Below, in pieces: positions 767 through 24,953 of a DNA stretch of 64,000 nt (position 1 is the first letter of the stretch; each line of letters opens with the position of its first letter). The position numbers and the translations under genes are program-made. The notes below the pieces were generated by a model that was not told where the DNA came from, searched no databases, and saw nothing but the letters and a program-made list of their open reading frames with translations. Source of the DNA: a bacterium (GTDB lineage Bacteria > Patescibacteriota > Patescibacteriia > 2-01-FULL-39-33); assembly GCA_037130015.1 (NCBI GenBank), contig JBAXTU010000001.1, positions 5,153-69,152 on the forward strand, written 5' to 3'.

Positions 767-777
767 AATTATACCCA

Positions 778-1971: not shown

Positions 1972-1974
1972 TTT

Positions 1975-3006
1975 ATGGCGAGTCGCTGGAAATTTATTGA
2001 TGTGCTCAGGGGATTGGCCATAGTGCTAATGGTTTTTAATCATACGGCCAGGTACCTATTGGACATTTCTGTTTTTGGCTATGAACAATTTGTTTATGGC
2101 ACCATGATTATGGCTGGGCCTGTTTTTTTGTTTTTGGTGGGTTTTTCACTGGCCTTGTCATTTGAGGCGACCAAAAAAAATATCAAGTCAAACAGAAAAA
2201 TAATCAGCAAATATGTTTTTAGAGGGTTAATAATTACAGCCGTTGGTTTTTTTCTTAGCTTTTGCGTTTTTTTGGACGAACAGTCATTGACTAGCAATGT
2301 TTTACACACCATTGGGGAAGGAATTATTTTAGCCATTCCTTTTTTATACTTCAGTCAAAAGTCCATTGGCCGTTTATTGACTTTATTTTTGGCCATAATT
2401 GTTATAATTTCTTTTTATTGGCTTTATCTTTTTTTTGTATTTTTTTCATTGTCGCATCAGATTATCGCGCAAATGTTTTTGTCTGGTTTTCAGTTGGTGC
2501 CATGGTTTGGTGTTATATTGCTAGGCATAGTCTCTGGCAATTTTTTTATTTTATCTGTACAAAAAAATCAGGCTAGTTTGTTTTTTAAAAAAATATTAGG
2601 TCTAGGTATTTGTAGTTTTTTGGTTTTTATATGTGTACAAATGATAAATCCGCAGACGCTTTGGCTGTTTAGCGGGGATTATGACCTGAACGGTTTTTGG
2701 TTGCCATCAGGAGCAATGATGATTTTTATCTTGTCAGGAATTATGGTTTGCTTGTCTGCTGTGTATTATTTGGTTGAAATTAAAAAAATAAATTTGCAAT
2801 TTTTGATTGATTTTGGTCGGGCTTCGCTTGTGTTGTATGTTTGGCATTTATTTTTAGTGGTTGTGGTTTTTGAGATTATTCTAGGTTTAAATTTTTTCAA
2901 TTGGTTTTTGTTTTTTGTTTTTGATTTGTTGTTGTTTGTATTTTTGTGGCAGTCAGCTAAAATATGGATAGAGATTAAAAAATATTTAAAAAAATATGTA
3001 TACTAA
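1975..3006 (+). CDS. DUF1624 / acyltransferase-3-like integral membrane protein
   Basis: N-terminus WKFIDVLRGLAIVLMVFNHT is typical of the HGSNAT/DUF1624 family. Polytopic. 11-nt overlap with the downstream rsmA. Confidence 0.4.
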   Translation: MASRWKFIDVLRGLAIVLMVFNHTARYLLDISVFGYEQFVYGTMIMAGPVFLFLVGFSLALSFEATKKNIKSNRKIISKYVFRGLIITAVGFFLSFCVFLDEQSLTSNVLHTIGEGIILAIPFLYFSQKSIGRLLTLFLAIIVIISFYWLYLFFVFFSLSHQIIAQMFLSGFQLVPWFGVILLGIVSGNFFILSVQKNQASLFFKKILGLGICSFLVFICVQMINPQTLWLFSGDYDLNGFWLPSGAMMIFILSGIMVCLSAVYYLVEIKKINLQFLIDFGRASLVLYVWHLFLVVVVFEIILGLNFFNWFLFFVFDLLLFVFLWQSAKIWIEIKKYLKKYVY

Positions 3007-3820
3007 AGACCAAATCAAAACACTTTGCGCCAAATACGACCTGATGCCATCAAAAAGCAAAGGGCAGAATTTTTTGACTGACTTTAAAGTGATTGAAAAA
3101 ATAATTGAAGTGGCAAAAATAAGCAAACAGGAAACGATTTTAGAAATAGGTCCTGGTTTGGGCGTGTTGACAGGGGAGTTGATAAAATCAGCCAAAAAAG
3201 TAATAGCCGTGGAATTGGACAAAAAATTGTTTGATTTTTTACAAGTTGAGTTTGTAGGAATTGAAAATTTAGAATTGATTAATTCCGACATTTTGAAATT
3301 GAATTTAGCAAAATTGAATTTAAAAGATTTTGAATATCGTCTGATTGCTAATTTGCCATATAATATTACTTCCGTGGCTATTAGAAATTTTTTGACTAAT
3401 TCGCCCAAGCCCAGTGAAATGATTCTTATGGTACAAAAAGAAGTGGCCCAAAGGATTTGTGCGCCTATTGGTGAAATGAGTATTTTGGGTATTTCAGCCC
3501 AGTTCTATGGCCTGCCAGAGGTCTTATTTGAGGTCAGGCGAGGTTGTTTTTGGCCAGAGCCGAAAGTTGACTCAGCTGTAATTAAAATAAAGTTAAAAGA
3601 AAATTTACCTGAAATTAGCGAAAAAAAGTTTTTTCAAATAGTGAAGATGGGTTTTTCTTCCCGTCGCAAGCAATTACATAATAATTTGGCTTCGGGATTG
3701 AACTTAAAAAGTGAAGATTTAAAAAAAATTATTATGGATTTGGGTTTTGATGAAAAAATCAGAGCGCAAGATTTGGGAGTGGCTGATTGGATTAAAATTC
3801 AGCAGATGATTTCTAAATAA
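2996..3820 (+). CDS. rsmA: 16S rRNA (adenine1518/1519-N6)-dimethyltransferase RsmA/KsgA
   Basis: GQNFLTD, SAM-binding ILEIGPGLGVLTGEL, catalytic NLPYNITS, full length about 270 aa. Confidence 0.9.
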   Translation: MYTKDQIKTLCAKYDLMPSKSKGQNFLTDFKVIEKIIEVAKISKQETILEIGPGLGVLTGELIKSAKKVIAVELDKKLFDFLQVEFVGIENLELINSDILKLNLAKLNLKDFEYRLIANLPYNITSVAIRNFLTNSPKPSEMILMVQKEVAQRICAPIGEMSILGISAQFYGLPEVLFEVRRGCFWPEPKVDSAVIKIKLKENLPEISEKKFFQIVKMGFSSRRKQLHNNLASGLNLKSEDLKKIIMDLGFDEKIRAQDLGVADWIKIQQMISK

Positions 3821-3872
3821 TATTTATTTGGGAATGATTTAATTTTTATGGTTTAATATATTTGTTTTTTAT

Positions 3873-3902
3873 TTGTTAGTTTTATATTAAATGTGGTATA
3901 AT
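3873..3902 (+). promoter_or_regulatory. sigma70-like promoter: TTGTTA, 18-nt spacer, extended -10 TGgTATAAT
   Basis: -35 at 3873-3878 and -10 TATAAT at 3897-3902, preceded by TG at 3894-3895. About 30 nt upstream of the 3932 ORF and the giant-gene operon. Confidence 0.45.
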
Positions 3903-3931
3903 TTAGTTATAAAATAATTATCCACACTTCA

Positions 3932-4888
3932 ATGGAAGGTGAAGAAAGAAACAGGCCTGATTCTTTGCAAGTTGATCCGTCAAATTGGGAAGAATATCAA
4001 GAAACAGTTGATGAAAATACTGTTTTTTCAGACGAAAAAAGGCCACGAAAAGAAAAAGCCGTTGCCGGAGCTATTTTAATTGTGGCTTTGGTGGCTGTTT
4101 TTTTTGTTTATTATCAGTTGTCATTGGCTGTTACCAGTCCTTTTAATTCTTTTATGCAAGCTACCAGTATAGCGTCAAGTTCTTTTGTTGCGACAGATAA
4201 TAATGGCAGTAATTCCGCAATTAAAGATCAATTTTTGTCCATGGCAGAGCTTAAAAGCAAAGACACGGATGGTGATGGTCTGTCTGATTATGATGAATTA
4301 TACAAATATCACACCAGTCAATTTTTAGAAGACACGGATGGTGATGGTATTTTTGATGGACAGGAAATAAAAGACGGTACCGATCCTCGTTGCCCCACCG
4401 GACAAATGTGTGATCATAGTTTAGAGGTGGCTTTGGCTCCGCCAACTTTTGATACCTCTGTTATGTCTTTGCCTGATCAAACAGCTGTACCCGATGCTAG
4501 TACCACCTTGAATATTATTAAGCAGTTATTATTAGATAATGGTGTTCCTCCTGATCAAATATATCAATTCAGTGATGCTGATTTGTTAGTTATGTATCAG
4601 CAGGTTGGCTCAGAACAAACCAGCTTGAGTAGTGTACAGCAGGTTACATCGGGGAATAGTGGTGTTAGTCAAATTCAATATAGCAATAACGTTGATTTTA
4701 AAACTTTAGGCATTAATTCACTAGAAGATTTTAAAAAAATGTCAGGATCTCAATTGCGTCAACTTATGATTTATCAGGGCGTAGCAACTGATACTTTAAA
4801 TCAAATTACCGATGATGAAATAAAAACTATCTTTTTAGAGCAATTACAATCAGTAACTAGTAGTACTGCCACTTCAACCTTAAAATAA
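3932..4888 (+). CDS. membrane-anchored protein with thrombospondin-type-3-like Ca-binding repeats
   Basis: One TM helix (AVAGAILIVALVAVFFVYY). Repeats DTDGDGLSDYDE and DTDGDGIFDGQE. Ser/Thr-rich C-terminus. 12 nt upstream of the giant gene. Confidence 0.45.
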   Translation: MEGEERNRPDSLQVDPSNWEEYQETVDENTVFSDEKRPRKEKAVAGAILIVALVAVFFVYYQLSLAVTSPFNSFMQATSIASSSFVATDNNGSNSAIKDQFLSMAELKSKDTDGDGLSDYDELYKYHTSQFLEDTDGDGIFDGQEIKDGTDPRCPTGQMCDHSLEVALAPPTFDTSVMSLPDQTAVPDASTTLNIIKQLLLDNGVPPDQIYQFSDADLLVMYQQVGSEQTSLSSVQQVTSGNSGVSQIQYSNNVDFKTLGINSLEDFKKMSGSQLRQLMIYQGVATDTLNQITDDEIKTIFLEQLQSVTSSTATSTLK

Positions 4889-4899
4889 TTTTATTTTTA

Positions 4900-7800
4900 A
4901 TGTTAAATAAATTGTTTTCATTTATAAAAAATCAGAGCTTCAAACAGTTGATTGCTGGTTTTTTATTGTTTTTAGTTATGTTTTTTGTGCCGATGATGCC
5001 AGTTTTGGCGCAAAGTGCTGTGGCAATAACAGCAACTCAGAGAGCCTATGATGCAGCTTTATTAGATACTGCTGTTAAATATGGCCTGGTTACAATGGGA
5101 CTTAATGCTGCTTATAAAATTTGTATGAATAATGATAAGGGAGCAAAACCAGATCAGCCAGGTCCTGTAAAACCAGAAAGTAATACTTCTGGTGAAGATG
5201 GGTCAGGTTTTAATTATGATGATCCGTATGCATCGGCTATTCCACTAGAGCCAACACCAGCCATGAATACTGATATTCAAAATTTGACTAATTGTATGGC
5301 TGAATCTTTGAAGGGCAATGCTGTTTTTACTAGAGCCCAGATTGAGGCGGATATTAAAATACGTCAGAGTCAAACCAATGAGAGTGGAATGGATAAAATA
5401 TTTAAAGATGTTTTTGCTGCAGCCTGGAAAAACATGTGGAGTCAATTTTCCAAAAGAATAGCTTATGACACTGCCAGTTGGCTGGCTTCTGGTGGCAAAG
5501 GGCAACAGCCATTATTTGTGACTCAAGGTTTTGGCCCTTATATGCTTGGCGTGGCCGACGAATCGGTGGGTGCTTTTATTGATACTATAGACAAACAATA
5601 TGGCGTCAATTTGTGCGCGCCAAATTTACAAATTCAATTATTGTTTAAGCTGGGACTAAATCCGAATGTTCCTCCAGTTCAATGCCGTTTCAGTAAAATG
5701 ATCACCAATTGGGGTTCGGCTATCAATGATGCCAGCTTTACTGTCAATTATAACGCCTATTTATCGCCTTCAGAAAATGATTTTGGTGTTTTTCTTAAAT
5801 TGCAAACCGGAGTTATTGATGAAAAAAATTGGGCTTTGTTTCAGGCGGCTCTAAAATTAAATACCGATAATGGTTGGCAAGATGTGCAAAATTTTGCCAA
5901 AAAAATCTTGACTCCTGGCAGTATGGTTAAAGAGTTAGCCATGAATTCAGGTGGAGCAGATATTAACAAATTCATGGAAGAACAAAAAGTTTTTACTGGT
6001 ACGGTGGTTGATTTTATTAATACTTTTGCTCAGACTTTGGTTTTTAAATTATTTAGTAATTTGCAAAATGGTTATTTTTCTAATAATAGTGATAGTAGTA
6101 GTGGCAATAGTTTAGCTGGCTTAAACTTAACTGATTTGTCTGGTTTGTTTAATTCTCAATCCCAACCATTTATTGAAGGTAAGGCTGGTGCGGCCGGAAG
6201 ACTGACAGGAATATTTCAGGCTCAAGATTCTGCTGCCAATCCAGGTCCGTATGATATTATTAATAAATTAATTTTTTGTTCAGATACTGCCAGAAAAAAT
6301 CCCGGACCAACCGATTGTGTAATAGACGAATCTTTTGCTTCTGGCATCCGTAATAGGGTTTTTGTCAAGGACTTGCCAGATAGTATTAAAAAACGTCGTT
6401 TTGCTCCTTCTGCTAATGATGTCACCAATCCTCAACTGGCTTTTACTTGGCGTAATATTGAAATACTTAGAAAATATCGCATTGTGCCAGACGGTTGGGA
6501 TGTGGCGGCTCAGTATTTGGCAAAAGCCACTGGCACTTATGTCACCCTAAATGATTTAATATCATGTTTTGATCCAAATGATAATTATACTGACTATTTT
6601 GCCCCATGGTGTGAAGGAATGATTGATCCTTTTTGGATTTTGAAGGCTTCAGAGCTTTTTTGCCGACGGCAAGGATATGGCGCCACCAATTTATTTTTTG
6701 ATGCTCAAGATGGTACAATTCAAAGAAATAAATATTGTTCTGATGAACAACAGTGTATAAAAGAAGATTATCAAGGAAATTGTTTGGCTTATGGCTATTG
6801 CACTGAAGAAAGACGCAATTGGGATTTTAATGCCACGCCTTGCGAACCAAAATATAATACTTGCCAAACAGTCACTAGTCGTCTTGGTGGGACTAATTCT
6901 TATTTAAAAAATACGCTTGATTTCCGTTATTGCAATGCGCAAAACGCTGGTTGCCGTTGGTATAGTGCCACTTTGAATCCAGTTTCCAATGATTGGATGC
7001 ATGAGACATCTTATTATCCTTCATCAGATGCTTCTTCTACTTTAGCCCTGACAAAATGTGGAGAATATGGAGGCTGTGATGTTAAAGGCACAGGAGAACA
7101 AGTAGGCGCTTGGCGTAGTATTAGTCCAGATTACAAAGTTATTTTGGGAAGTCCTTGTCTGGACACTAATAATTGTAAATTTACCGCTGATGATAAATGC
7201 ACAATTCCTTATGGTGGAATTAAATGTCTGACCGGATCTTCCACTTGGCTCACTTTGGGAACATCAACTATGCCTGGAGCCGAGACCATTTATTTTAATC
7301 GTCAGGTTCAGGCTTGCGATGGTTCAGAAAGTGGTTGTAGTCAGTTTATACGTGCCGTGCCTGGAGTTGGCAGTAATCTAATACCAAATAGTGGTTTTAA
7401 TATTGATGAAAATAATAACAACAAGCCAGATGGCTGGGAAAAAGGAGCACATGCATCACATATGACTTCTACTAATGGGCAGGTTTTGGTAGATTATGAT
7501 GCTGAGACCATATACGCAACAGTGATAAGCGTCAAACCAAATACAAGGTATGTTCTTTCTGTTTATGCGGCTCAAACTTCAACCGTTTCCACTAGTGAAG
7601 CTAGAATAGAAACCCAATTATTTGAGTCAAATGATGCCAATATTTCACACAATAATGTTACAGGGTATGGTTTAAAAAGCATTGCTACTAATTGTACAGT
7701 GTCAGCCGGAGGTAATAATTATTTTGGAGCAGAAGCTAAAACTACGGAATTAATTTTTAAACCAGCAGGTACGGATCCGGAAAGAAGTTCTTGTTGGTTT

Positions 7801-10800
7801 GAAACGCCAGCCACAGCTGGGCAAATTGGTATAAAGATGTTTGCGAATGATTTGCTTGTTCCGACTGGTAAGCAAATACTTATAAGTGATATTCAATTAG
7901 AAGAAGTTGCTTATGGTGTTGAGTATCCTTCGTCTTATACGGATTATGCACCATCTCAAAGACCGAGCAATCAATTGGGTTATGTGAAAAAAGCACCTGA
8001 TTATTATCGTTGCTATACCACTTCAACTTTTTCAGCTTGGCCATTAAATCGCAATCAATTGGAAAAAGTTTTACAGCAAAGAAGGCCAGAATGTTCTGCT
8101 TATGCTGGTGTTTGTATTCCAGAAGAAGTTGGTTGTGAGGCTTTTACACCAGTTAATAAAGATCCTATGGTGCCAGGCGTGGCCACCAAAGCTGATTTAT
8201 GTCCGGCCGAGTGTCTAAATTACCAAACCTATCGCCAATCAGAAACAAGTTTCTTGTCACCTGATGAGCGTCAGTTTATTGCTAATAGCAATTTAAAAAC
8301 TTGTTCGGCATCTGTGGCTGGTTGTGATGAATTTACAAATATTGATGAAGCGACCAGAGGTGGAGAGAGTAGGGAATATTATTCCAAATTGAAATTTTGT
8401 CAAAAGCCAGCCAGTGATGACAGTGATTATTTCACTTGGGAAGGTAGCGACACCACTGGTTATCAATTGAAATCATATCGTCTGAAACATAGCCAAACTA
8501 GCAGTGTTGATCCTACGGCACCTTGCACTGTTTTGACTTATCCAACAGGTAGTGGTGGAGCTAATGCTTGTAAAGATCTTATTACTGATGGTGATGCTAG
8601 AATTGCTTTACCTAGTCCTTTGGCTGGTCCGGTTGTTAAAGCTGGAAGGTTAAAAGATTATTTAACTCATTTAAATAATGATGTCATTACCACCAGCACA
8701 GACTTGAATCCACTGATTACAACAGAATTACACAAATATGGTTTGTGCGCCAAGCAAGAAGTGAAAGGTTATTATTATTTTTCAGATAATGGCACGCCAG
8801 CCACTACCACTGATGATAGTTTGGTGTATACGCCAATTAACCCGGATTGCCGTGAGTTTTATGATGATATGGGTAATGTTAGTTATCGTTTGCTGTATCA
8901 GACTATTATGTCCACCAATAATTGTTATGCTTATCGTCGCACTCAGACACAATATTCGTTTCTTGATGCTCAAAATGATTGTGATAATTATCAGGGTTAT
9001 TGGGATACTACTAATAATGTTTGTATTTACATGGCGGTGCCAAAAGGTGGTCGTGTTTGTTCGGCTACGGCCGTTGGTTGTCGTGAATATATAGGCAATC
9101 GTGGTAATAATGTGCAAAATGTATTAAACACTGATTTTGAAAGCGGAGCCGACTCCTGGCAATATGGCACACTCAGTGCCGCAGCCACTTATCCTGGCGG
9201 TTCTTCTTTTTCTAATAAAGCGGCTAGTGGCCAAAACTTTGGACAAGTGATCAGAAATATTTATTTAAGCAATAATCGTTCATATACTTTGAGTTTTTGG
9301 GTACGAGGCGGAGATATTGACGGAGATTTTTCTCTGGACTCTGTGCGTTTGTTGGCCACATCTTCTATGAGTGGAACTAATGATTATCATAGTTTTTTTG
9401 CGGTATCTTCAACTCAGGCTAGTGAAGCTGGCCTTTCCTCTCAGGGTGTTTCTAGTACCTTGGCCGTGGTAGAAGTTAATGATCAATGGCGCCGTTATGA
9501 GCTGGGACCGGTGTATGTTGATTGGGGTGGCAATCAAGAATATTTTTCAAATACTCTAGAATTAAATATACCAACTGGTAAAACAATTTTTATTGATAAT
9601 GTAATTCTAAAAGAAGTCAATCAAAATATTTATGCCATAGACAACTCTTGGGTGACTCCATTTTCTTGCGACAACAAAATTGAAACGCCTTATGGCAGTA
9701 GCAGTACTAATCCGAGTTTTGTTTATGATAGTTACAATGCGGTGCGTGATTATCCTGGGGAAATGGTGGGTTGTAGCGCTTATCGTGACAGAAAAAATGT
9801 TGTTTGGAATCTAAAATCGTTTGAGCGTTTGTGCCGTCCAGATGCTATTGGTTGTGAGGCTTTGATTGATACTTATAATTCTGATTCGCCTTTTGGAATA
9901 ACATATAATGTTGGCGATCAAAAAGGCGCTGAGGTGAAAGTACCTGCTGATTCGCAAATTTATATGGTCAATGACAAGCCGTTTGAATGTAAGGCAGAAA
10001 ATATGGGTTGCGGAGCATATGGTTTGCCTAATATGACCAGATATGATGAAACAGTTGGCTATAATACTATATTTTTGAAAAATCAACCTGATCGCTATAA
10101 TTCTGATTTGTGCAAATCCAATGAATTATGGTGCGAGCAATTCCAAGAACAATCCAAGTCTGTTAATAGTTCTTTTGTGTATTTCAAGGATCCTAGAGGA
10201 AAATTGTGCCAATATTCAATAGCTGGTACAAGTATTGATGGTTTGTCTAATTTGGGTCAGTGGTATGAGGTTAATGCTTCTACTACTTGTGCAGTGGATT
10301 ATTATCAAACTATTGGCGTGGGCAATAGGGAAGAGAAAAAACAACCAGTTGGTTGGTGGGAAAATGATCCCGCAAACTCTAATTTTGGAGGAGAAAGCAC
10401 ACGGTATGCAACTGGTTGGGCAGGATTATGTCCACCAACTCAAAGCAGTTGCACAGAATATATTGATCCTTTGGGACAATTTTATGGCAACATGATTGAT
10501 ACTAGATTAGTATCTGTAGAGCATAAAATGTCAATAGCTTTGGATGCTGATGTTTTGTATGTGGTTTCGGCTAAGACAGTTGAATATAGTGCGGGGACAA
10601 CAACACCTAATATTAGTGTTTATTGTCCTGGTTCAAAAATCTTATCACCAGATTTGAGTATGCAATCACCAACTGGTGTAGGTGAAAGTATTAGCTTGGA
10701 TAGAAATCAATTTACAACTAAAGAGCAGGTAAGTGGAAGATTTTATTTAATAAGTACAAATAATTACACTAGTTTTAATTGTACTGTTTCGTATAGTCCA

Positions 10801-13800
10801 GGCATTGACGAGAAGACTCTTCAAATAGCTCCGGCTGGTGTTTATTATTATTTGGCTGATGAAGTTGAAAAAGCCAATGAAGGCAATGCTTGTAATGGTT
10901 CGGTTGATTTTGATAATGGTTGTATTTTAGTGAATAATCGCTCTAATATTAATTATTCTAGCTATTCAACTTCTACTAGATTCAAAGATTATTTGATTTA
11001 TGACACTGATAAAACCTATTTTAGCCAAATGCTAAATCCATCGCATCAAGCTCTGAGTCCGCAAATGGCTGATGACAGTGCTCAAAATAATTCTGACAGT
11101 ATTGTTAAGGTATCAAAAAATCGCCAATGTTCAAATTGGCTATATTGCAATACTTATCAAAAAAGCAATAACAGCGACATTAATCCAAGTTTTGGTAATA
11201 ATGACCACTGTCTGAGTATTGGCGCTTGTTCCTCGCTTGGTAGTAATGGTTCATGTAATCGGTCTGCTACTTTGGATAATTCAAGTTATTTTAGGGTTGG
11301 TAGAGATTCTAATAAGACTGGATATTCAATTTTAGGATTAGATGCCTCATCATCTTTTGGCTATATTGCTTTGTCAAAACTAAAACAGCAAGGAGCATCT
11401 ACTTTTGTTACAAACGGTGATTTTGAGCAATTGGCCAGTGAAATGACAACAGAGCCCATGGGTTGGTATCCATCAAATGGAAATTTGAAATGGGGAAGTG
11501 CACAATTTAGTATTGAAAGCGACCCCATGTATTTGCGCCAAGGCAATGGCTATCTTCGCTTGAATGGCATGTATATAGTAGATTCAGATGTTATTGATGT
11601 TCTTCCTGGTACAGAATATTATGTATCTGGCCTTATTAACACTCTTAATTTAAAGGGGAATGCCAATGTTGTTATTAAATACTTCAGTTATGATAAGGGA
11701 GGAGTGCAAGTGGTTAATGATAATAATTTAATTTCAATGAGTCCTGGTCAAGACTGGACAAAGTTTATAAAAAAAATAAACACAGTATCTGCTGTTTCTA
11801 TTGTTTTAAGAATACAGAATTTTGGTAGTAGTGTTGGTGGTTATTCCATGATTGATGCTATTGATATGAAGCCGGTTTTAGCTGATCCTGACGAAACCAA
11901 TGATTCAAATAAGCTTGTCAGAACTTGCCGTATTTATCCGAATGAAAATTCTCCGTCTTGCCAATATGTTGAAGGAAGTGTTTTTTATTATGGTCAATAT
12001 GGTTATTGTTTGGTGCCTGATCCTCTCAATCCAAGTGGTTGTCTGCAGTGGTGGCCAGTAGATGATATTAGAGGCGATGTGGCTGATGAAATTGGCTATA
12101 ATGAAGTAAGACCATTATATTATTGTGTAGAACGCAAAGTGTCAGACAAAGTGGCTTTTGGGGCTGGTGGAATTGTTAATGTTGATACCAAAAATTTACC
12201 AGAGAAAGGCAAGCAGTTTGCTCAGGTGATAGGAGTAAATAGCGCTGGCCAACAATTCAATACAGTAGATTTTTCTTCAATGGTTAGTAGTTATTTAAGG
12301 CCTCTTTTGCGTTATCCGTTTCTTCAGTCTGTCAGTTTTGCTGGTCTTTTTGGCGCTGTGGGAATGGACAAAAATTTATATCCTTTTCCTTTGCAAGCTG
12401 ATATGTATCCAGGCAAGGCCTGTCTTAATCCTGGTGGAATTTTTGGTCAAGCATTTTGTTTAGGAAGTGAGGAAGGAGGTCATTATACTTCTCTTACTAC
12501 CGGATCTTCTGGTGGAGGAACTTATTGTTCTATAATGTTTCCACATTGTAAAAGATGTTATATTGCTCCAACAGAGACTATTTTAACCGAGGACCCAACT
12601 TGTACTCCAGTATCAGAGACATCAGGCGAATGTGCAAATTGTGATTTGTCCAATCATCTCTCTTATAATTCAGCCGCCATTTGTGAAGAAACAGATAAAT
12701 ATAAAGAATGTGCGGCAAGTACAACAGCAATAATTGTACCTCCAACTCCTGATACTGATTGGTTGACTCTAATAAGTAATAGTTTAGGCAATATTATTAA
12801 TGGTATTGTTGATGTAGTTAACTTTAAGACTGGTATAGGAAAAGGTTCTGATGAATGGGGTGGTTGGGGAGTATTTGGTACGGCTTTTGGTGGTAATTCT
12901 GGAAAAGTACCCATTGGTGTTCCCATGAATTTTCATGCGGCCGCCGGTTTTAGTGTGACCGGAATGAATATAGCTGCTGGTGTGGCAAAGGCGGCTGGAA
13001 AAGTTGAAGTGTTTGGTTTTAAGCTTGGAGAGATTACAGATATGTTTCAGGGGTTCCATATGTTTGGTATGAAAGTGGTGACAGATGAAGATGCTGATTA
13101 TGCTAGTAAATTTACTGATCCTATACCTGGCATAAAAGGTGATGTTTTGGGTATAGTGTGGTTTTTGACCCAATCAGATGTGTATGGATCAGGAGTGGTT
13201 GGTTCTTTTACTTTGAATATGAAGGTGCCATATTGTTCAAAAATTGTGCGAGTGGTGACGGCTGGTGGCAAAAATAAAGCTTGGTTTAGTAGAGTACAAA
13301 AAGGGTCATCATATGTATCAACTGATAAAGATTGTTATAATCCTGCCACCAATAGGTATGAGATTGTATGTCTTAATCAACTTTTGAATCACCCAACAGA
13401 TTTGCCAGTAGGTCAATCTGATATTAAGTATGAATCTGATGCTCAAATTTTTGGAGCAGTTGTGCCATCTGGCATTTCTCAAAACCCACGATGGTGGAGT
13501 AGTCAAGGAGGATTTCCTTTATTTTATCAATTGCAGGACACTACTTTATCTTTTCCATATCAGCCACGTATGGGGCAACTACACACTGCTAGTGATCCAG
13601 AAAAAGGATTACAACAGTTATTTGCTAGAAGCTATGGTACATGGAAGTGGTTTTGGAATAAAAATGATTGTAATACTACTAATAAGCCTGATAACTCATG
13701 CTTTGATGCGGGCGGTTATTATATAGCTGATAATACTTCAGGCGCTGTCAATTGGAATTTGCCTACTAATCTTTGTGGTAGTGACGAACGGCCCACAGTA

Positions 13801-14211
13801 GGAACAACTTTTTGCTTGGTTAAGCCAAAAATTGATAATGTTAAAATAAATGATGATGATAGTGATATGCCACTTACGATTCATGGTCGCGGTTCAGTAA
13901 AATTATCTTTTAATGTTTTGGTGGAAAAAGATCAACTGCCGCTAAGTTCTTATGTTATTAATTGGGGAGATGAGGGAGGTGGAGAAAGCGGAATAGAGAT
14001 TTCCGGCGCCTCTTTGCGCAGTCGTAATGCCACCAGTTCCGAGGCTAATAATCAATTTGTTTTTTATCATAATTATGATTTTTGGCAAATGCAACAGCTT
14101 GGTGCTAGTTGCAGTGCTTTAAGTTGTTCTGCTGAAATAACAATTAATGCGACTGATAATTGGGGAGCTGTTGGTACTGGTAAGCCTATGAGAATTAATG
14201 TTTTACCTTAA
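4900..14211 (+). CDS. giant (3103 aa) Cys-rich secreted/surface protein with three CBM4_9-like beta-sandwich modules
   Basis: Single uninterrupted 9.3-kb ORF with an N-terminal signal-like hydrophobic segment and Cys density throughout. Three modules with the carbohydrate-binding NGDFE...W signature start near nt 7387 (NSGFNIDE...DGWEKG), 9130 (NTDFESGADSWQYG) and 11410 (NGDFEQL...MGWY). Gly-rich C-terminal region. Confidence 0.6.
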   Translation: MLNKLFSFIKNQSFKQLIAGFLLFLVMFFVPMMPVLAQSAVAITATQRAYDAALLDTAVKYGLVTMGLNAAYKICMNNDKGAKPDQPGPVKPESNTSGEDGSGFNYDDPYASAIPLEPTPAMNTDIQNLTNCMAESLKGNAVFTRAQIEADIKIRQSQTNESGMDKIFKDVFAAAWKNMWSQFSKRIAYDTASWLASGGKGQQPLFVTQGFGPYMLGVADESVGAFIDTIDKQYGVNLCAPNLQIQLLFKLGLNPNVPPVQCRFSKMITNWGSAINDASFTVNYNAYLSPSENDFGVFLKLQTGVIDEKNWALFQAALKLNTDNGWQDVQNFAKKILTPGSMVKELAMNSGGADINKFMEEQKVFTGTVVDFINTFAQTLVFKLFSNLQNGYFSNNSDSSSGNSLAGLNLTDLSGLFNSQSQPFIEGKAGAAGRLTGIFQAQDSAANPGPYDIINKLIFCSDTARKNPGPTDCVIDESFASGIRNRVFVKDLPDSIKKRRFAPSANDVTNPQLAFTWRNIEILRKYRIVPDGWDVAAQYLAKATGTYVTLNDLISCFDPNDNYTDYFAPWCEGMIDPFWILKASELFCRRQGYGATNLFFDAQDGTIQRNKYCSDEQQCIKEDYQGNCLAYGYCTEERRNWDFNATPCEPKYNTCQTVTSRLGGTNSYLKNTLDFRYCNAQNAGCRWYSATLNPVSNDWMHETSYYPSSDASSTLALTKCGEYGGCDVKGTGEQVGAWRSISPDYKVILGSPCLDTNNCKFTADDKCTIPYGGIKCLTGSSTWLTLGTSTMPGAETIYFNRQVQACDGSESGCSQFIRAVPGVGSNLIPNSGFNIDENNNNKPDGWEKGAHASHMTSTNGQVLVDYDAETIYATVISVKPNTRYVLSVYAAQTSTVSTSEARIETQLFESNDANISHNNVTGYGLKSIATNCTVSAGGNNYFGAEAKTTELIFKPAGTDPERSSCWFETPATAGQIGIKMFANDLLVPTGKQILISDIQLEEVAYGVEYPSSYTDYAPSQRPSNQLGYVKKAPDYYRCYTTSTFSAWPLNRNQLEKVLQQRRPECSAYAGVCIPEEVGCEAFTPVNKDPMVPGVATKADLCPAECLNYQTYRQSETSFLSPDERQFIANSNLKTCSASVAGCDEFTNIDEATRGGESREYYSKLKFCQKPASDDSDYFTWEGSDTTGYQLKSYRLKHSQTSSVDPTAPCTVLTYPTGSGGANACKDLITDGDARIALPSPLAGPVVKAGRLKDYLTHLNNDVITTSTDLNPLITTELHKYGLCAKQEVKGYYYFSDNGTPATTTDDSLVYTPINPDCREFYDDMGNVSYRLLYQTIMSTNNCYAYRRTQTQYSFLDAQNDCDNYQGYWDTTNNVCIYMAVPKGGRVCSATAVGCREYIGNRGNNVQNVLNTDFESGADSWQYGTLSAAATYPGGSSFSNKAASGQNFGQVIRNIYLSNNRSYTLSFWVRGGDIDGDFSLDSVRLLATSSMSGTNDYHSFFAVSSTQASEAGLSSQGVSSTLAVVEVNDQWRRYELGPVYVDWGGNQEYFSNTLELNIPTGKTIFIDNVILKEVNQNIYAIDNSWVTPFSCDNKIETPYGSSSTNPSFVYDSYNAVRDYPGEMVGCSAYRDRKNVVWNLKSFERLCRPDAIGCEALIDTYNSDSPFGITYNVGDQKGAEVKVPADSQIYMVNDKPFECKAENMGCGAYGLPNMTRYDETVGYNTIFLKNQPDRYNSDLCKSNELWCEQFQEQSKSVNSSFVYFKDPRGKLCQYSIAGTSIDGLSNLGQWYEVNASTTCAVDYYQTIGVGNREEKKQPVGWWENDPANSNFGGESTRYATGWAGLCPPTQSSCTEYIDPLGQFYGNMIDTRLVSVEHKMSIALDADVLYVVSAKTVEYSAGTTTPNISVYCPGSKILSPDLSMQSPTGVGESISLDRNQFTTKEQVSGRFYLISTNNYTSFNCTVSYSPGIDEKTLQIAPAGVYYYLADEVEKANEGNACNGSVDFDNGCILVNNRSNINYSSYSTSTRFKDYLIYDTDKTYFSQMLNPSHQALSPQMADDSAQNNSDSIVKVSKNRQCSNWLYCNTYQKSNNSDINPSFGNNDHCLSIGACSSLGSNGSCNRSATLDNSSYFRVGRDSNKTGYSILGLDASSSFGYIALSKLKQQGASTFVTNGDFEQLASEMTTEPMGWYPSNGNLKWGSAQFSIESDPMYLRQGNGYLRLNGMYIVDSDVIDVLPGTEYYVSGLINTLNLKGNANVVIKYFSYDKGGVQVVNDNNLISMSPGQDWTKFIKKINTVSAVSIVLRIQNFGSSVGGYSMIDAIDMKPVLADPDETNDSNKLVRTCRIYPNENSPSCQYVEGSVFYYGQYGYCLVPDPLNPSGCLQWWPVDDIRGDVADEIGYNEVRPLYYCVERKVSDKVAFGAGGIVNVDTKNLPEKGKQFAQVIGVNSAGQQFNTVDFSSMVSSYLRPLLRYPFLQSVSFAGLFGAVGMDKNLYPFPLQADMYPGKACLNPGGIFGQAFCLGSEEGGHYTSLTTGSSGGGTYCSIMFPHCKRCYIAPTETILTEDPTCTPVSETSGECANCDLSNHLSYNSAAICEETDKYKECAASTTAIIVPPTPDTDWLTLISNSLGNIINGIVDVVNFKTGIGKGSDEWGGWGVFGTAFGGNSGKVPIGVPMNFHAAAGFSVTGMNIAAGVAKAAGKVEVFGFKLGEITDMFQGFHMFGMKVVTDEDADYASKFTDPIPGIKGDVLGIVWFLTQSDVYGSGVVGSFTLNMKVPYCSKIVRVVTAGGKNKAWFSRVQKGSSYVSTDKDCYNPATNRYEIVCLNQLLNHPTDLPVGQSDIKYESDAQIFGAVVPSGISQNPRWWSSQGGFPLFYQLQDTTLSFPYQPRMGQLHTASDPEKGLQQLFARSYGTWKWFWNKNDCNTTNKPDNSCFDAGGYYIADNTSGAVNWNLPTNLCGSDERPTVGTTFCLVKPKIDNVKINDDDSDMPLTIHGRGSVKLSFNVLVEKDQLPLSSYVINWGDEGGGESGIEISGASLRSRNATSSEANNQFVFYHNYDFWQMQQLGASCSALSCSAEITINATDNWGAVGTGKPMRINVLP

Positions 14212-14276
14212 TAATTTTTAGTTGGCGTAGAGTGTCAAAAAATGTTAAAATATAAGAGTCAAAAAAACAATAATCC

Positions 14277-17087
14277 ATGCTTACACTCCGAAAAAAAATA
14301 TTTTTTTCGCTTAGCCTGTCACTGATTGTGATGGGTGGTGTTTTGGCGCCCATAAAGCCCAATGTTAATGTTTTTGACGGGCAGGTTGGTTTTTTGAAGA
14401 GTAATGTGGTGGTGGCGGATGGTGTTAATGATAACAAACCAGATTCAGGTGGAGTCGTCTCTAATTTTATTGGTTGGGTCTTATATTATGTGGCCACTTG
14501 TTTTGCTAAGCTGGCTGGGCTACTTATTCAAGTTATGGTAAATGTAGCGCAAAAAAATGATTTTTTGACCCAACCGATTGTGCTTAATGGCTGGCGTATT
14601 GTGCGTGATATTTGCAATAATTTTTTTATCATTATTTTGCTAGCCATTGCTATTGGCACAATTTTTCGCGTTTCAGCTTATCATTACAAACAGCTTTTGC
14701 CAAAATTACTGATTATGGCGGTCTTGATTAATTTTTCCAAAATGATTGCCGGCATTATGATTGATTTTTCACAAATGATCATGATGTTTTTTGTGTCTCC
14801 TTTTGCTGGTGATACTGGCCCTAGCATTATTTTGGGCAGTGTTGGTTTACATAAATTATATCAACTTGAACAAGCAGGACAAGCAAGCAGCGCAGACATA
14901 GGTAATTTAAGTTGGCAAATTATTTTTGGTTTGTTTTTTGCTATTATTTTAGCAGTAATTGCTTGCGTAGTGGTGGCTTGTATTACTATTATTCTTGTTT
15001 ATCGTATTGTTATGCTGTGGTTTTTGGTTATTTTGTCGCCAGCGCCATATTTGTTGGCCACTTTTCCCAAAGGCGAAAGCTATGCCAGTATGTGGTGGAG
15101 TGAGATTACCAAATATTTAGTGGTTGGTCCTGTCATGATGTTTTTTTTGTATCTATCTTTTTTTAGTGGTTATAGAGATGCGTCAGGCATTGATGATCAC
15201 ACAGCGTCAGCGTTAGTGGGCAGCACCCCAAGCGCTGTAGGAACATCTTTCGGCACTACCAATACAGCAGACACAGCAGTAAAGTCATCAATGATGCAAC
15301 CAGCAAATATATTTGATTTTATGATTATTATCGGATTAATGATTGGTAGTTTGGTGGCTGGACAAAAAACTGGCGTGGCTGGCGCTTCTTGGGCTGGCAA
15401 GGGAATTGGGTTGATACGTAGTACAGCCAATAAAGGAGCTAGTAAAGCCTTTGGCGGTTTGGTTTATAAAAAAGATAAAAATGGAAATAGAAGCGGTTTG
15501 GCTTTTAGAGCAGCCAGAAGCACGGTTGGCGCGGCCGGGGCCGGATTGGCTGTTCTTAGTAGTAAGGCAGGAAAAGCCAGTGGCATGGTAGATACCGGAG
15601 TTAAAGGCGCTGGCGTGGTTGGTGCTGCAGCCACAGCCGGAGCGCTTGGCTTAGGTGCGGTGGGTGCAGCACCACTCGCTATGGCCGCTGCAGTTGGTTA
15701 TGGTGGGTATAGAGGTATTAAAGCTTTAGCGCAAAGAATGACTAAAACTGGTCGTGAAAGCAGAAAAATGCGTCAGGATCTTATTAATGGAAGCTATGAA
15801 ACTGAGGATTATGTGCAGGCCAAAGATGAAGCCGGCAATCTTATTCCTGATAAATATGAAAAACAGAAAAGAAAGTTTAAAAAACATGAAAGTGGCATCT
15901 TTATGGAGATCAATGATAAAGGTGAGTTTATAGATAAAAAAGGAGAATTAATTGAATATAAAGAAAATTCTCAAGGCGAAAAAGAATGGGTGGATAAAAT
16001 AGGAAGCCCGGTGGATATATCGCATTTGGGCAATGCTCAAAAACATGATGCCAGTGGCAATGAAATTGGAGATTTAAAACCATCAAACAGAGTTTATTCG
16101 GCAGTCACCAAAGACGGTAAAATCAGTGAAAATTGGGAAACTTATATGGGTACATATTATGGCTCAGGAGCTGGCAAGGCCGCAGCAGCTAGAGATTCAG
16201 CCGAAGCTGATAAGATTTCAAAATTGGCCAATGATTATGGACACCTCAATGAAAGTATTTTACAAAAATTATTGACTACGGAAATAGATCAAGGCAAGAA
16301 AATGGCTATTGCTATGACTTTGGCTATCAAGGATGGATTTAAAGGTATGAATCTTAAAAATGGCCAAGATAAAGTAAAAGAAGCTAAAGCAGTTCTTGGC
16401 AGTAATGATGTTTTAATTAAAAAATTTAATGATGAAGTGGACAAAAAATTTGCTCATTTTAATTATAATCTAAACACGGCTAGTGGCCGAGCCACTTTTG
16501 GCAAACGCCGTGATGCTGGCAAAATTAATGATGTTATGGATTCGTCGGCTTACAAAGATCCTGGAGTATTAAAATCTTTGCAGGAAAATATGACCAGTGA
16601 AGAATATATTACACATATGAAGAAAGTTAAGAATTCTTCCAAAAATCATGAAAAATCTTTATTAACAGGCTTAGATGAAATGATAAAACAAGATGGCAGT
16701 ATTGTTGATACTAAAGATAAGGATAAAATGTCTGTTTCTCGTCGTGCTATGGCAATGATCTCTGGAGATTTAGCTAAAGCTATGCAGGGAGTTGATTTGG
16801 GTAATACGTCTCAGCTTGCTGAATCTAAAACAGCTATGAATGATTTCTTTAGTCGAGCTTCCAATAGGGAAATTGCTAATATTGATAATGATATATTTAC
16901 AGAATCAGAGGTTCAGAAAAAAATGGGTACAGGAACTACTACCCCCACTCATGCACATACCTTTATTAATAATGTTTTGCATGTAGCTGTTAATGATAAT
17001 ATGAATCAAAATGATGTTGAAAATGTTAGACGACAAGGAGGTTCTAATATCTTGGCTAGAAATTTAGCTATTCATGCAAAACCATAA
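14277..17087 (+). CDS. VirB6/TrbL-like polytopic T4SS channel protein with a long hydrophilic C-terminal extension
   Basis: Signal peptide, a periplasmic segment, then 5-6 TM helices (IIILLAIAIGTIF..., LLIMAVLINF..., IIFGLFFAIILAVIACVVVACITIILV..., WFLVILSPAPYLL...). Gly/Ala-rich linker and a roughly 550-aa charged tail. Same-strand neighbourhood with VirB3/VirB4-like genes. Confidence 0.45.
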   Translation: MLTLRKKIFFSLSLSLIVMGGVLAPIKPNVNVFDGQVGFLKSNVVVADGVNDNKPDSGGVVSNFIGWVLYYVATCFAKLAGLLIQVMVNVAQKNDFLTQPIVLNGWRIVRDICNNFFIIILLAIAIGTIFRVSAYHYKQLLPKLLIMAVLINFSKMIAGIMIDFSQMIMMFFVSPFAGDTGPSIILGSVGLHKLYQLEQAGQASSADIGNLSWQIIFGLFFAIILAVIACVVVACITIILVYRIVMLWFLVILSPAPYLLATFPKGESYASMWWSEITKYLVVGPVMMFFLYLSFFSGYRDASGIDDHTASALVGSTPSAVGTSFGTTNTADTAVKSSMMQPANIFDFMIIIGLMIGSLVAGQKTGVAGASWAGKGIGLIRSTANKGASKAFGGLVYKKDKNGNRSGLAFRAARSTVGAAGAGLAVLSSKAGKASGMVDTGVKGAGVVGAAATAGALGLGAVGAAPLAMAAAVGYGGYRGIKALAQRMTKTGRESRKMRQDLINGSYETEDYVQAKDEAGNLIPDKYEKQKRKFKKHESGIFMEINDKGEFIDKKGELIEYKENSQGEKEWVDKIGSPVDISHLGNAQKHDASGNEIGDLKPSNRVYSAVTKDGKISENWETYMGTYYGSGAGKAAAARDSAEADKISKLANDYGHLNESILQKLLTTEIDQGKKMAIAMTLAIKDGFKGMNLKNGQDKVKEAKAVLGSNDVLIKKFNDEVDKKFAHFNYNLNTASGRATFGKRRDAGKINDVMDSSAYKDPGVLKSLQENMTSEEYITHMKKVKNSSKNHEKSLLTGLDEMIKQDGSIVDTKDKDKMSVSRRAMAMISGDLAKAMQGVDLGNTSQLAESKTAMNDFFSRASNREIANIDNDIFTESEVQKKMGTGTTTPTHAHTFINNVLHVAVNDNMNQNDVENVRRQGGSNILARNLAIHAKP

Positions 17088-17102
17088 TAAATAGAAATTA
17101 AA

Positions 17103-18191
17103 ATGATTCAAAATTTTAAACAAAAATTCAATCAGTTGCCAAAAAATATTCAGGCTTTGTTGTCCCTTGATTATGGACGCAAGCTTAATATTTATTTGAT
17201 TGACAAATATAAGCTAAAAACAATTGATGACAAGGAGTCGTTGCACAATGTAGTGGATATGGTTTTTTTAGGCGAGATTAAAATTATTGATTTGCCAAAG
17301 TTTTTAGCTGATAATTTTAGTCTTAATTTGGAATTGGCCAAAAAATTAGCCGTTGATATTGTGGGACTAAGATGTTTGTCTGCCGGTGATTTTTTTGCCG
17401 GACAAGCCAAAAAGTTTATTTTGGATAATGGCGGACACCTAGAAGATTATGATAGATATATTTCTGACACTCAAAAAGCTTTAAAAATTGAAGCGACTGG
17501 CGGGGAAGTTGATTTGCCAGAAACACCAAGAAAAATTATTCCCGAGACTATTGAATTCCAAGATTTGCCACCAGCTCATGAAAAGAAAGGCATGTTGGAA
17601 GTATTTAAAAAAGGCGTAGTTGATTTTTTTGAAGTTGATTCGCCAGAAGTGTTGGAAATGATGGAAGATCTGAATAGGGAATTGGCCTTGATGCTTTTGG
17701 AAGATCAAGTTTTTAAACGCGAGCTGGAAGAAGCGCTTTATCTCAATGCTGATATTTTGACTACTAGCAGTTTATATTTGGAAGGCAAGCCGGTTCCGGG
17801 CACAGCCAGTAATTGGCTCAAGGATTTTTTGAAAAAAAGTGGTACGAGTTTTTTTGATAATGTGGTGCTGTCTGGCTATGTGGCCAATTCGGAAAATGCC
17901 AAAAAATTAGCAGATCATGACAAAAATAAATTAGCAAAACTGCTCACCTTGTATCGTAATATCAAATTTTTTCCAGGTTCCATGGGTAATGTGCCACCGG
18001 ACAATTGGCAAGTAATTCCGCTGGGTCGTCCGCGAGCAGAAGAAAAAAATGTTAGTGCTATGCCGTCAAAAAAAATTGCCAGCAATCCTTTGAAAAATTA
18101 TGATTTAAAAAATATGACACCGCTAGAAATCAGCGCTTTGCAAGAACAGTATGATATTTCAGATGAAGAAATTGAAAAGATGAAAAAATAA
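17103..18191 (+). CDS. hypothetical acidic protein (paralogue of the next ORF at the N-terminus)
   Basis: Shares an N-terminal motif (QKFNQLP..I...LS) with 18197-19666. No recognisable catalytic motif. Confidence 0.5.
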   Translation: MIQNFKQKFNQLPKNIQALLSLDYGRKLNIYLIDKYKLKTIDDKESLHNVVDMVFLGEIKIIDLPKFLADNFSLNLELAKKLAVDIVGLRCLSAGDFFAGQAKKFILDNGGHLEDYDRYISDTQKALKIEATGGEVDLPETPRKIIPETIEFQDLPPAHEKKGMLEVFKKGVVDFFEVDSPEVLEMMEDLNRELALMLLEDQVFKRELEEALYLNADILTTSSLYLEGKPVPGTASNWLKDFLKKSGTSFFDNVVLSGYVANSENAKKLADHDKNKLAKLLTLYRNIKFFPGSMGNVPPDNWQVIPLGRPRAEEKNVSAMPSKKIASNPLKNYDLKNMTPLEISALQEQYDISDEEIEKMKK

Positions 18192-18196
18192 TATTT

Positions 18197-19666: not shown

Positions 19667-19689
19667 TTTATAAATATTAAATAGAAAAA

Positions 19690-20121: not shown

Positions 20122-20156
20122 GCTTAATTATTTAATTTTTAAAATTATTAAAAAAT

Positions 20157-20828: not shown

Positions 20829-20835
20829 TTATTTT

Positions 20836-22848: not shown

Positions 22849-22868
22849 ATTAAATTAATTTATTTCTT

Positions 22869-24136: not shown

Positions 24137-24178
24137 AAAAATGTTGGAAAGATGATAATATGTGGTAGAGGTTTACCT

Positions 24179-24268
24179 GGAGAGGTGGCTGAGTGGCTGA
24201 AAGCGACGGTTTGCTAAACCGTTGAGCGTCTTTTTGGCGCTCCGGGGGTTCGAATCCCCCCTTCTCCG
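24179..24268 (+). tRNA. tRNA-Ser (anticodon GCT)
   Basis: Cloverleaf folded by hand. Acceptor GGAGAGG/CTTCTCC, anticodon arm ACGGT-ttGCTaa-ACCGT, long variable arm GAGCG..CGCTC, T-arm GGGGG-TTCGAAT-CCCCC. No encoded CCA. Confidence 0.8.
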
Positions 24269-24282
24269 AAGATTTAAAATAG

Positions 24283-24369: not shown

Positions 24370-24415
24370 ATTGTAGATTATTTTAAATTAAAATTAAAAA
24401 GATATTTTTAAACCT

Positions 24416-24916: not shown

Positions 24917-24953
24917 TTGTTTTGTGTTATATTTTTGTTGTTTAGTATTGTCT

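Follow-up and report, generated by a model that had tools for sequence, protein, structure and literature searches.

A giant cysteine-rich protein, probably exported, encoded at the head of a type IV secretion-like operon in Patescibacteria

Background

Why should a bacterium whose genome is probably very small devote 9.3 kb, a sizeable share of it, to one gene, and does the product of that gene belong with the secretion machinery encoded beside it? These questions are raised by a 64,000-nucleotide (nt) stretch of patescibacterial DNA (assembly GCA_037130015.1, contig JBAXTU010000001.1, positions 5,153 to 69,152), hereafter the window, in whose own numbering all positions are given. The gene encodes a protein of 3,103 amino acids (aa), here called the giant, and stands in front of genes for a type IV secretion system (T4SS).

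Patescibacteria, which account for a large part of bacterial diversity, live on other cells, and next to nothing is known of how they attach to these cells and feed on them. Complete ABY1 genomes of 0.9 Mb have been reported (PMC11809585). The function of the T4SS of Patescibacteria has been called 'completely unknown' (PMC11665869), and in the Saccharibacterium Southlakia epibionticum both T4SS genes and several glycan-binding surface proteins are essential for epibiotic growth (PMC10633639). In monoderm conjugation systems, surface adhesins establish and stabilise contact between donor and recipient via cell-envelope polymers, and a 2025 survey of Patescibacteria T4SS detected no adhesin such as PrgB (PMC12102498).

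A preliminary reading of the sequence (the original prediction) had suggested that the giant may be the contact or host-binding component of the apparatus. The reading that we favour, with about even confidence and from comparative genomics only, is that the giant would be a Sec-exported, disulfide-stapled modular surface protein, a lineage-specific extracellular accessory of a chromosomal T4SS-like apparatus in ABY1-type Patescibacteria.

Results and discussion

An intact gene of 3,103 codons

The giant gene is one open reading frame (ORF) on the forward strand, 4900-14211, which begins with ATG and contains no internal stop. At the G+C content around it (approximately 38%) about 6.6% of random codons would be stops, and by our own calculation 3,103 open codons would arise by chance with a probability of about 1e-92. 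The identical product of 3,103 aa is known from independent gene calls and contigs (P0188). The single intact frame of the original prediction is thus upheld, with no sign of internal stops or frameshifts that would imply several genes. The NCBI version of the protein (MEI6287968.1, 'hypothetical protein WCP18_00055') has 3,077 aa and starts at Met27, which would cut into the hydrophobic core of the signal segment. We prefer the longer start, because it yields a proper signal peptide with a basic n-region, hydrophobic aa 17-36 and a VLA-QS cleavage site.

Diversification of the gene by a diversity-generating retroelement (DGR) was considered and dropped: our repeat search of the window DNA found no internal repeats, and no template/variable repeats of the DGR type, involving 4900-14211. 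The giant is split into at least two ORFs in four related loci (L015, L029, L058 and L087), with 879-2,402 aa before the first stop. One of these splits coincides with a run of Ns (L015); the others may be frameshifts, assembly errors or genuine pseudogenisation.

A family of collinear giants

All 50 matches of the first homologue search were themselves giants, of 2,084-4,542 aa and collinear with most of the query, and the stretch common to all of them was the N-terminal domain (N-domain, aa ~165-690). When the N-domain profile was searched exhaustively against 1.84 billion cluster representatives, 2,914 of them matched at E<=1e-3, and 1,179 did so at E<=1e-30. Among the best 150 matches almost every protein has 2,300-4,500 aa and carries the domain at about residues 50 to 650; the short ones are on short contigs or are fragments. 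Two word-indexed homologue searches with the N-domain and its profile returned seven fragments only. In a scan of one genome per GTDB species, 292 giant loci were confirmed.

The nearest relatives are found in metagenome-assembled genomes labelled Buchananbacteria, Falkowbacteria, Uhrbacteria or 'Parcubacteria/Patescibacteria group', labels that we take to correspond to GTDB class ABY1. Many of the GTDB representatives that carry a giant are titled 'uncultured Gammaproteobacteria bacterium' (third-party annotation assemblies) and one 'Omnitrophota' (loci L008-L087); given the gene content, these titles look like mis-assignment or mis-binning. The collections of 72,556 plasmids and 50,697 phage genomes hold no relative of the giant, and a plasmid or phage origin was rejected on this ground.

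In UniRef and the source records, family members are named only 'hypothetical protein', 'MAM domain-containing' or 'CBM-cenC domain-containing', and our literature search turned up no paper that describes them. Neither the family nor its N-domain, C-x6-C units, size and fixed position in the Patescibacteria T4SS operon are described in the databases and papers searched. Surface contact proteins whose genes accompany a T4SS are, as a kind, already known.

The giant gene heads a T4SS block

The genes from that of a TSP3-like membrane protein to comF lie on one strand and are separated by 5-65 nt, or overlap; past the VirB6-like gene the gaps are 5-35 nt (Table 1). The giant starts 11 nt past the TSP3 stop, and no convincing terminator was found after it. 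The good promoter that had been placed before the giant exists as a promoter-like site, top-ranked in a scan of 3700-23600 and matched by consensus only; it lies, however, upstream of the TSP3 gene and not directly before the giant. This site is likely to be the start of an operon that contains the giant gene.

The TSP3-repeat membrane protein noted earlier is confirmed both by Pfam and by its transmembrane (TM) profile: one TM segment (aa 40-69) follows a basic stretch and precedes thrombospondin type-3 Ca-binding repeats and a conserved tail. The VirB6-like gene does begin 65 nt downstream of the giant, as had been described, and its product matches Pfam TrbL/VirB6 weakly (E 0.008; 16.4 bits, under the cut-off of 25.9), with a polytopic topology and a position that fit. 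This protein has about eight TM segments in aa 1-475, followed by a 460-aa tail that is Lys/Glu-rich, charged and Cys-free, and the TM part alone is conserved in distant relatives (query residues ~58-420). It is three times the size of a canonical VirB6.

Two soluble proteins of 362 and 489 aa come next; they look like paralogues because they share the N-terminal motif QKFNQLPxxIxxxLS, and in many relatives one gene of ~450-620 aa replaces the pair. The adjacent VirB4, PrgI/VirB3 and TrsD/TraC-like genes form the combination by which a T4SS of Patescibacteria (MPF-FATA-related) is recognised. PF26593 (TraC-like) is matched in the loci of relatives, and the pair of a 190-aa protein and ComF is conserved downstream of VirB4 there. 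Published ABY1 T4SS loci are MPF-FATA-related, have VirB2-like pilins but no relaxase or coupling protein, and have comF, recG and radA nearby (PMC12102498). The locus in the window matches this description, including comF, recG and radA, and no relaxase or coupling protein is present among the ORFs scanned in the 64 kb, in line with the lack of both that is reported for the phylum (PMC12102498).

Table 1. Features of the giant gene and of its surroundings in the window
Feature	Position	Strand	Basis
FemAB, MFS, acyltransferase	98-3006	+	window annotation
RsmA	2996-3820	+	window annotation
Promoter-like site: TTGTTA, 18-nt spacer, TG-extended TATAAT	3873-3902	+	111-nt rsmA/TSP3 intergenic region
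TSP3-like bitopic membrane protein, 318 aa	3932-4888	+	Pfam TSP3_bac E 3.2e-10
Giant ORF, predicted exported disulfide-rich modular protein, 3,103 aa	4900-14211	+	ORF call, hydrophobicity, relatives
Signal-peptide-like N-terminus, aa 1-37, VLA-QS	4900-5010	+	hydrophobicity; cleavage site placed by eye
Conserved N-terminal domain, aa 165-600, mostly alpha-helical (predicted)	5392-6699	+	family signature
First Cys-rich linker, aa 601-821, 16 Cys	6700-7362	+	Cys/motif list, invariant Cys, 43% mean identity
Beta-sandwich module 1, aa 822-1000, CBM4_9-like by profile only	7363-7899	+	profile and hhalign
Beta-sandwich module 2, aa 1403-1585, Pfam CBM_4_9 member	9106-9654	+	PF02018 above cut-off
Possible fourth, degenerate beta-sandwich module, aa 1872-1977	10513-10830	+	partial match, weak
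Beta-sandwich module 3, aa 2165-2345, CBM4_9-like by profile only	11392-11934	+	module-1 profile, hhalign
Gly-rich, poorly conserved, length-variable region, aa 2421-2775	12160-13224	+	conservation profile
Conserved C-terminal region, aa 2776-3103, ending WGDG...DNWG	13225-14208	+	invariant W3022, D3086, N3087, W3088
VirB6-like polytopic membrane protein, 936 aa	14277-17087	+	weak Pfam TrbL/VirB6, TM profile
Soluble Cys-free protein, 362 aa	17103-18191	+	conserved in T4SS block
Soluble Cys-free protein, 489 aa	18197-19666	+	conserved in T4SS block
PrgI/VirB3-like	19690-20121	+	Pfam PrgI 2.5e-8
TraC-like/TrsD-like	20157-20828	+	weak TraC_F_IV match
VirB4-type ATPase	20836-22848	+	P-loop_TraG 1.5e-30, CagE_TrbE_VirB
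Bitopic 190-aa protein, VirB8-like candidate by position only	22869-23441	+	TM profile
ComF-like phosphoribosyltransferase, overlapping 190-aa gene	23432-24136	+	Pfam scan
Three tRNAs	24178-25028	+	window annotation
RecG	25073-27136	+	window annotation
Second T4SS-related cluster	29259-34729	-	domain matches
T4SS pilin	29259-30197	-	domain match
Double T4SS_pilin/TrbC fused to SLT lytic transglycosylase, 598 aa	30208-32004	-	domain match
PD40 beta-propeller protein	32204-33448	-	domain match
416-aa membrane protein	33479-34729	-	related to small TM protein before VirB6-like genes in giant-less lineages
Complete type IV pilus cluster: PilM, PilB (T2SSE+MshEN), response regulator, PilT-like, PilC (T2SSF), several N-methyl pilins, prepilin peptidase	51012-63294	+	

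Gene order is kept among distant relatives

At protein identities of 25-47% the gene order is RsmA, TSP3-like, giant, VirB6-like, one or two soluble proteins, PrgI, TraC-like, VirB4, a protein of ~200 aa and ComF. Loci in genomes of GTDB species were counted as informative when the giant ORF was complete and was followed by 1.5 kb of DNA or more, and in 40 of these 46 the VirB6-like gene comes next after the giant. The six exceptions have mobile-type genes inserted downstream (GIY-YIG, IS200-like, radical SAM). In some relatives unrelated genes stand between the giant and the VirB6-like gene: 3.7 kb in L003 and 7.3 kb in the Uhrbacteria locus L005, which the exceptions resemble and where the VirB6-like gene is found past a transposase. 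On the other side, every one of the 81 loci with upstream DNA has the TSP3-like gene before the giant, and the gap is 1-11 nt in the six loci with gene calls.

The position at the head of a T4SS-like block, which had been remarked upon in this one genome, is therefore deeply conserved and no accident: the arrangement with T4SS genes is kept in related genomes down to 25% identity, and no homologue is clearly away from such genes, the six exceptions being those with mobile-type insertions.

The reverse test was made with the VirB6-like profile against metagenome contigs, and 47 of the loci so found had 3 kb or more of DNA upstream. The giant is upstream in 33 of these and missing from 14. In the loci without it, GroEL and ATP-synthase genes and a TM protein of ~210 aa stand upstream of the same core block (VirB6-like, 362-like, 489-like, PrgI, TraC-like, VirB4 and 190-like). 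Since 14 of the 47 blocks lack the giant, the giant/TSP3 pair is a lineage-specific addition that heads a conserved T4SS core, and not a universal component or a core part.

The ~210-aa TM protein, with the motif WIDIHV...FCKLG.EW, lies directly before the VirB6-like gene in giant-less loci (L093, L096, L100, L101, L127, L154, L159, L160 and L161). Its only relative in the window is the C-terminal part of the 416-aa ORF next to the pilin genes (hidden Markov model E 1.8e-9). Probably this protein is a conserved part of the T4SS that has gone unrecognised and that is encoded at different places in different lineages.

Signal segment, cysteines and conserved ends

The giant has the signal-like N-terminus that had been described: aa 12-46 are its sole hydrophobic segment, with no further membrane segment, and an N-terminal hydrophobic segment is present in 150 of the 162 full-length relatives. 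A C-terminal hydrophobic anchor or an LPXTG motif is absent from the giant and from all 162, and Pfam recognises no SLH, LysM or similar wall-binding domain in the giant.

The protein is also Cys-rich, as noted at the outset. All of its 90 Cys residues (2.9%) are in the mature part, and dozens of them are invariant among 16-37 relatives, in alignments that reach down to 25% identity. Across the 162 full-length members of the family the Cys content is 2.5-5.3%. A hairpin unit C-x5/6-C, typically C-x6-GC-x-[ED]-[YF], is repeated about ten times along the giant. The cytoplasmic proteins of the T4SS block have no Cys at all; this, together with the even number and the conservation of the Cys residues, points to a giant that is extracellular and oxidised.

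In one related locus (L003, 1-4226; relative P0031), a few kb before the giant, a DsbA/thioredoxin-family gene adjoins a gene for a T4SS pilin. Such a gene would fit extracytoplasmic disulfide formation.

The N-domain is the part with the most uniform conservation (36% mean identity to the query, with 94% of positions aligned). Its motifs are ASGGKGQxPLF, NPGPTDCVID, ILRKYRIVPVGWE and LVDPxWVLKAP, and its invariant or near-invariant polar residues include D576, R524, E637 and W579. No match to it was found in Pfam, NCBIfam, PDB or fold searches. AlphaFold2 models show helices, of which aa 449-589 are confident, at low overall confidence (predicted local distance difference test scores of 51 and 61). 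The N-domain and the Cys-rich linkers together have few gaps and 36-44% mean identity to the query. Conservation is lost in the Gly-rich region (20% identity, 44% of positions aligned, and a length of 14-637 aa among relatives) and regained in the C-terminal ~330 aa (32-33% mean identity). For the WGDG...DNWG end of the protein a PKD domain was suggested by resemblance and rejected as unsupported by Pfam.

Variable beta-sandwich modules

The original prediction placed three modules with an NGDFE...W signature of carbohydrate-binding modules (CBMs) near nt 7387, 9130 and 11410. Their location and their relation to one another hold, but membership in Pfam CBM_4_9 (PF02018) holds for module 2 only (aa 1407-1471; 28.4 bits, cut-off 25.9). 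With the whole giant and nine segments searched at lenient thresholds, this was the only Pfam family found, and modules 1 and 3 gave no direct match. The profile of the module-1 family matches module 2 (independent E-value 2.5e-7) and module 3 (4.5e-7), and hhalign relates module 1 to each of them with 96-97% probability; between modules 2 and 3 hhalign gives no direct link. The same profile partly matches aa 1872-1977 (independent E-value 3.8e-5), a weak fourth copy.

Pfam matches to GH101_dom-5 and SpvB (E 0.03-0.1) were judged to be noise. The NCBIfam search of the giant gave no match, and neither the single sequence nor the N-domain profile drew more than chance-level hits from the PDB sequences (glutathione transferase E 0.27, globin E 0.12). 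The earlier statement that no catalytic motif is recognisable is in keeping with the Pfam, NCBIfam and PDB sequence searches, in none of which a catalytic family appeared.

CBM_4_9 is matched in 10 of 16 relatives of the giant (best E 1.8e-13). The beta-sandwich modules have 23-31% mean identity to the query and variable length, and module 1 is especially so, with 23% identity and 3-219 aa in relatives. In the distal part of individual relatives, NHL/beta-propeller, PA14, CBM6, He_PIG or VWA domains are present instead. The conserved N-domain and linkers, together with modules that vary and are swapped among relatives, thus fit the 'conserved base, variable tip' of receptor-binding proteins.

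A surface accessory of the T4SS, and its rivals

Under the reading that we favour, one transcript from the promoter before the TSP3 gene would carry the giant gene together with the genes of the T4SS membrane core. The product would be exported by Sec, and oxidation outside the cell would then make of it a rigid chain, composed of beta-sandwich modules and small Cys-locked units. Its alpha-helical N-domain would hold it at the surface via the TSP3-like protein and/or the VirB6-like channel protein; most plausibly the former is the obvious docking candidate and the latter the second. The distal variable modules would bind host surface glycans or other envelope structures, most plausibly host envelope glycans, and so make or stabilise the contact across which the T4SS works. 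From the data above we infer that the giant stays at the surface, docks on a partner, binds a ligand and is functionally coupled to the T4SS, and likewise that it adheres, binds carbohydrate and physically belongs to the apparatus. Judged from its place at the head of the T4SS block, the giant appears to be the best candidate for the host-touching part of this T4SS-like machine.

Several points weigh against this. The T4SS blocks without a giant indicate that the apparatus needs none in principle, and the tolerated insertions between the giant and the VirB6-like gene argue against obligatory co-translation. The genes rsmA, FemAB and MFS upstream, and comF and recG downstream, are also syntenic; since the housekeeping gene rsmA is syntenic to the same degree, gene order alone is no proof of function, and the whole region may be a stable chromosomal neighbourhood. 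The confidence of the N-domain models is so low that the fold is not interpretable, and a CBM4_9-type fold would by itself be no proof of carbohydrate binding. Surface retention is assumed, as a recognisable cell-wall or membrane anchor is absent, and contact of the giant with parts of the T4SS, in an experimental or structural sense, is presumed.

These points leave room for a general envelope or surface protein (an adhesin, spacer or coat) that acts apart from the T4SS in a frozen chromosomal neighbourhood, which we regard as a possible but doubtful explanation. To the syntenic genes just named it can add leuS upstream and the tRNAs downstream; it accommodates both the giant-less blocks and the insertions that part the giant from the VirB6-like gene in several genomes; and surface functions abound in the window, which also has type IV pilus genes and further Cys-rich secreted proteins. 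However, the order is kept at 25-30% protein identity, where bacterial gene order usually decays unless the genes are co-transcribed, little DNA separates the genes, and the TSP3 gene alone has a good promoter-like site upstream of it. S-layer or coat proteins typically contain few Cys, whereas the giant has 2.9% Cys and its family 2.5-5.3%.

The uniform conservation of the N-domain and its polar residues D576, R524, E637 and W579 could also point to a catalytic domain; a novel hydrolase of glycan or peptidoglycan, or a membrane-active domain, would be examples. The giant would then be a secreted enzyme or toxin that acts on the host envelope, with CBM-like modules that target host polysaccharide. 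CBM_4_9 modules are classically appended to glycoside hydrolases, and monoderm T4SSs require a wall-degrading activity. Yet no catalytic family was found in Pfam, NCBIfam, PDB sequences or fold searches, an SLT lytic transglycosylase is already present, fused to a T4SS pilin (30208-32004), and the predicted long helices, though the models are weak, are more like a scaffold or docking element than a compact hydrolase. We consider an enzyme distinctly unlikely.

A place inside a T4SS operon would suit a translocated substrate, and effector delivery has been proposed for the Patescibacteria T4SS, the function of which is unknown (PMC11665869). That the giant is an effector, and not a machine part or an adhesin, is nevertheless very improbable, given that its classical N-terminal Sec-type signal and 90 Cys indicate export and oxidative folding outside the cell, that no coupling protein is found among the scanned ORFs of the window, and that a 340-kDa disulfide-rich T4SS substrate seems implausible.

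The artefact of several genes, or a decayed pseudogene, read as one ORF through an assembly error has a negligible probability despite the split ORFs in a few relatives, given 3,103 codons without a stop, an identical protein from independent contigs, and relatives of 2,300-4,500 aa that are collinear over their full length.

Comparison with known contact proteins

The analogy with PrgB-type adhesins that had been drawn at first holds for position and proposed function only: there is no LPXTG motif, no PrgB family match and no plasmid relative. On pCF10 the adhesin genes prgA, prgB and prgC are presumably upstream of prgH, prgI and prgJ in the same operon, with PrgH, PrgI and PrgJ as the VirB6-like, VirB3-like and VirB4 proteins. 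The giant is likewise at the 5' end of an operon with VirB6-like, VirB3-like and VirB4 genes, and both are large Sec-exported surface proteins, the giant by prediction. PrgB differs in that it shows no sequence, Pfam or NCBIfam relation to the giant (adhesin or Ig-like domains, E<=1) and no PDB match. The giant, for its part, lacks a sortase anchor, is chromosomal, is about 2.4 times larger and very Cys-rich, and has an N-domain without counterpart. A PrgB-type plasmid or integrative and conjugative element carries a relaxase and a coupling protein, whereas the neighbours of the giant are housekeeping genes.

TraN, the adhesin that stabilises mating pairs in F-like plasmid systems, is Cys-rich, Sec-exported and encoded in a T4SS operon, and its variable region recognises surface structures of the recipient. 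It is, however, an outer-membrane protein of diderms with ~600 aa and an architecture different from that of the giant, and Pfam gives no TraN family match for the giant at E<=1. Patescibacteria are considered to be without an outer membrane. By sequence the giant is no homologue of PrgB or of TraN.

The giant resembles the CBM4/9/22 group (CBM_4_9, 'CBM-cenC') in that module 2 is a member and modules 1 and 3 are related through module 1; in known enzymes such modules accompany a glycoside hydrolase domain, and none was found in the giant. The giant adhesins of type I secretion systems have RTX nonapeptide repeats, a secretion signal at the C-terminus and no N-terminal signal. In contrast, the giant has a signal-like segment at its N-terminus and no internal DNA repeats, and Pfam finds no RTX/HemolysinCabind family in it.

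Among ultra-small episymbionts, the giants of Patescibacterium danicum (PMC11809585) and, reportedly, the products of the giant genes of Omnitrophota and the SPEARE proteins of Nanohaloarchaeota are very large exported modular proteins in small genomes, with a proposed role in host contact, and the giant is like these in being one very large, predicted exported, modular protein of a tiny genome with a proposed role of this kind. The P. danicum giants have FhaB/FN3 domains and no full-length homologues (PMC11809585), whereas the present family has thousands of collinear members, a conserved N-domain of its own and a fixed position in a T4SS operon. An identity of our protein with these 'giant FhaB proteins' was rejected, as the paper describes a different, orphan protein (PMC11809585).

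Other features of the window

A second T4SS-related cluster lies on the opposite strand, which also carries RadA. The 598-aa fusion of pilin and SLT domains in this cluster is predicted to unite VirB2-like and VirB1-like functions in one protein, and a segment of 271 nt is triplicated over the two pilin genes (29259-32004) with 65-73% identity.

Five consecutive ORFs on the forward strand (38868-50950) encode Cys-rich proteins with signals, of 483, 780, 625, 1505 and 607 aa and with 10-32 Cys each. Pfam assigns them to no family, except for a sub-threshold CBM_4_9 match in the protein of 1505 aa. They were tried as paralogues of the giant and ruled out, as blastp finds no similarity. Cassettes are repeated in this region: 41298-41597 is identical (100%) to 43464-43763, and 41614-41913 is 98% identical to 45565-45864. 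A unit of 58 nt that encodes 'GNVGIGTTTP..KL.V.G' is present 15 times. These ORFs look like recombining (gene-converting) variable surface proteins, just upstream of the type IV pilus genes. With the T4SS, its pilins, the type IV pilus and variable secreted proteins together, the 64-kb window looks like a host-interaction region.

Conclusions

The giant family is tied to a T4SS operon across Buchananbacteria, Falkowbacteria and Uhrbacteria and numbers more than 1,000 clusters, and it lacks annotation; its N-domain is a family that current databases lack. As an accessory of the T4SS, the giant is a testable candidate for the host contact of the machine and for variation in host range through swappable distal modules.

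A bolder version of this reading, which we think unlikely, is that the giant and its TSP3-like partner form a new extracellular module of a repurposed monoderm-type T4SS, a disulfide-rigid stalk that would stand on the VirB6-like channel, extend through the envelope of the epibiont to the host and position an uptake machine on it. The machine would take up host DNA, nucleotides or other macromolecules; the T4SS operon ends in comF, and recG and radA follow. If this were true, the pair, built on a new domain family of a helical N-domain and C-x6-C hairpin units, would be both the host-range determinant and the physical bridge with which an entire class of uncultivated bacteria feeds.

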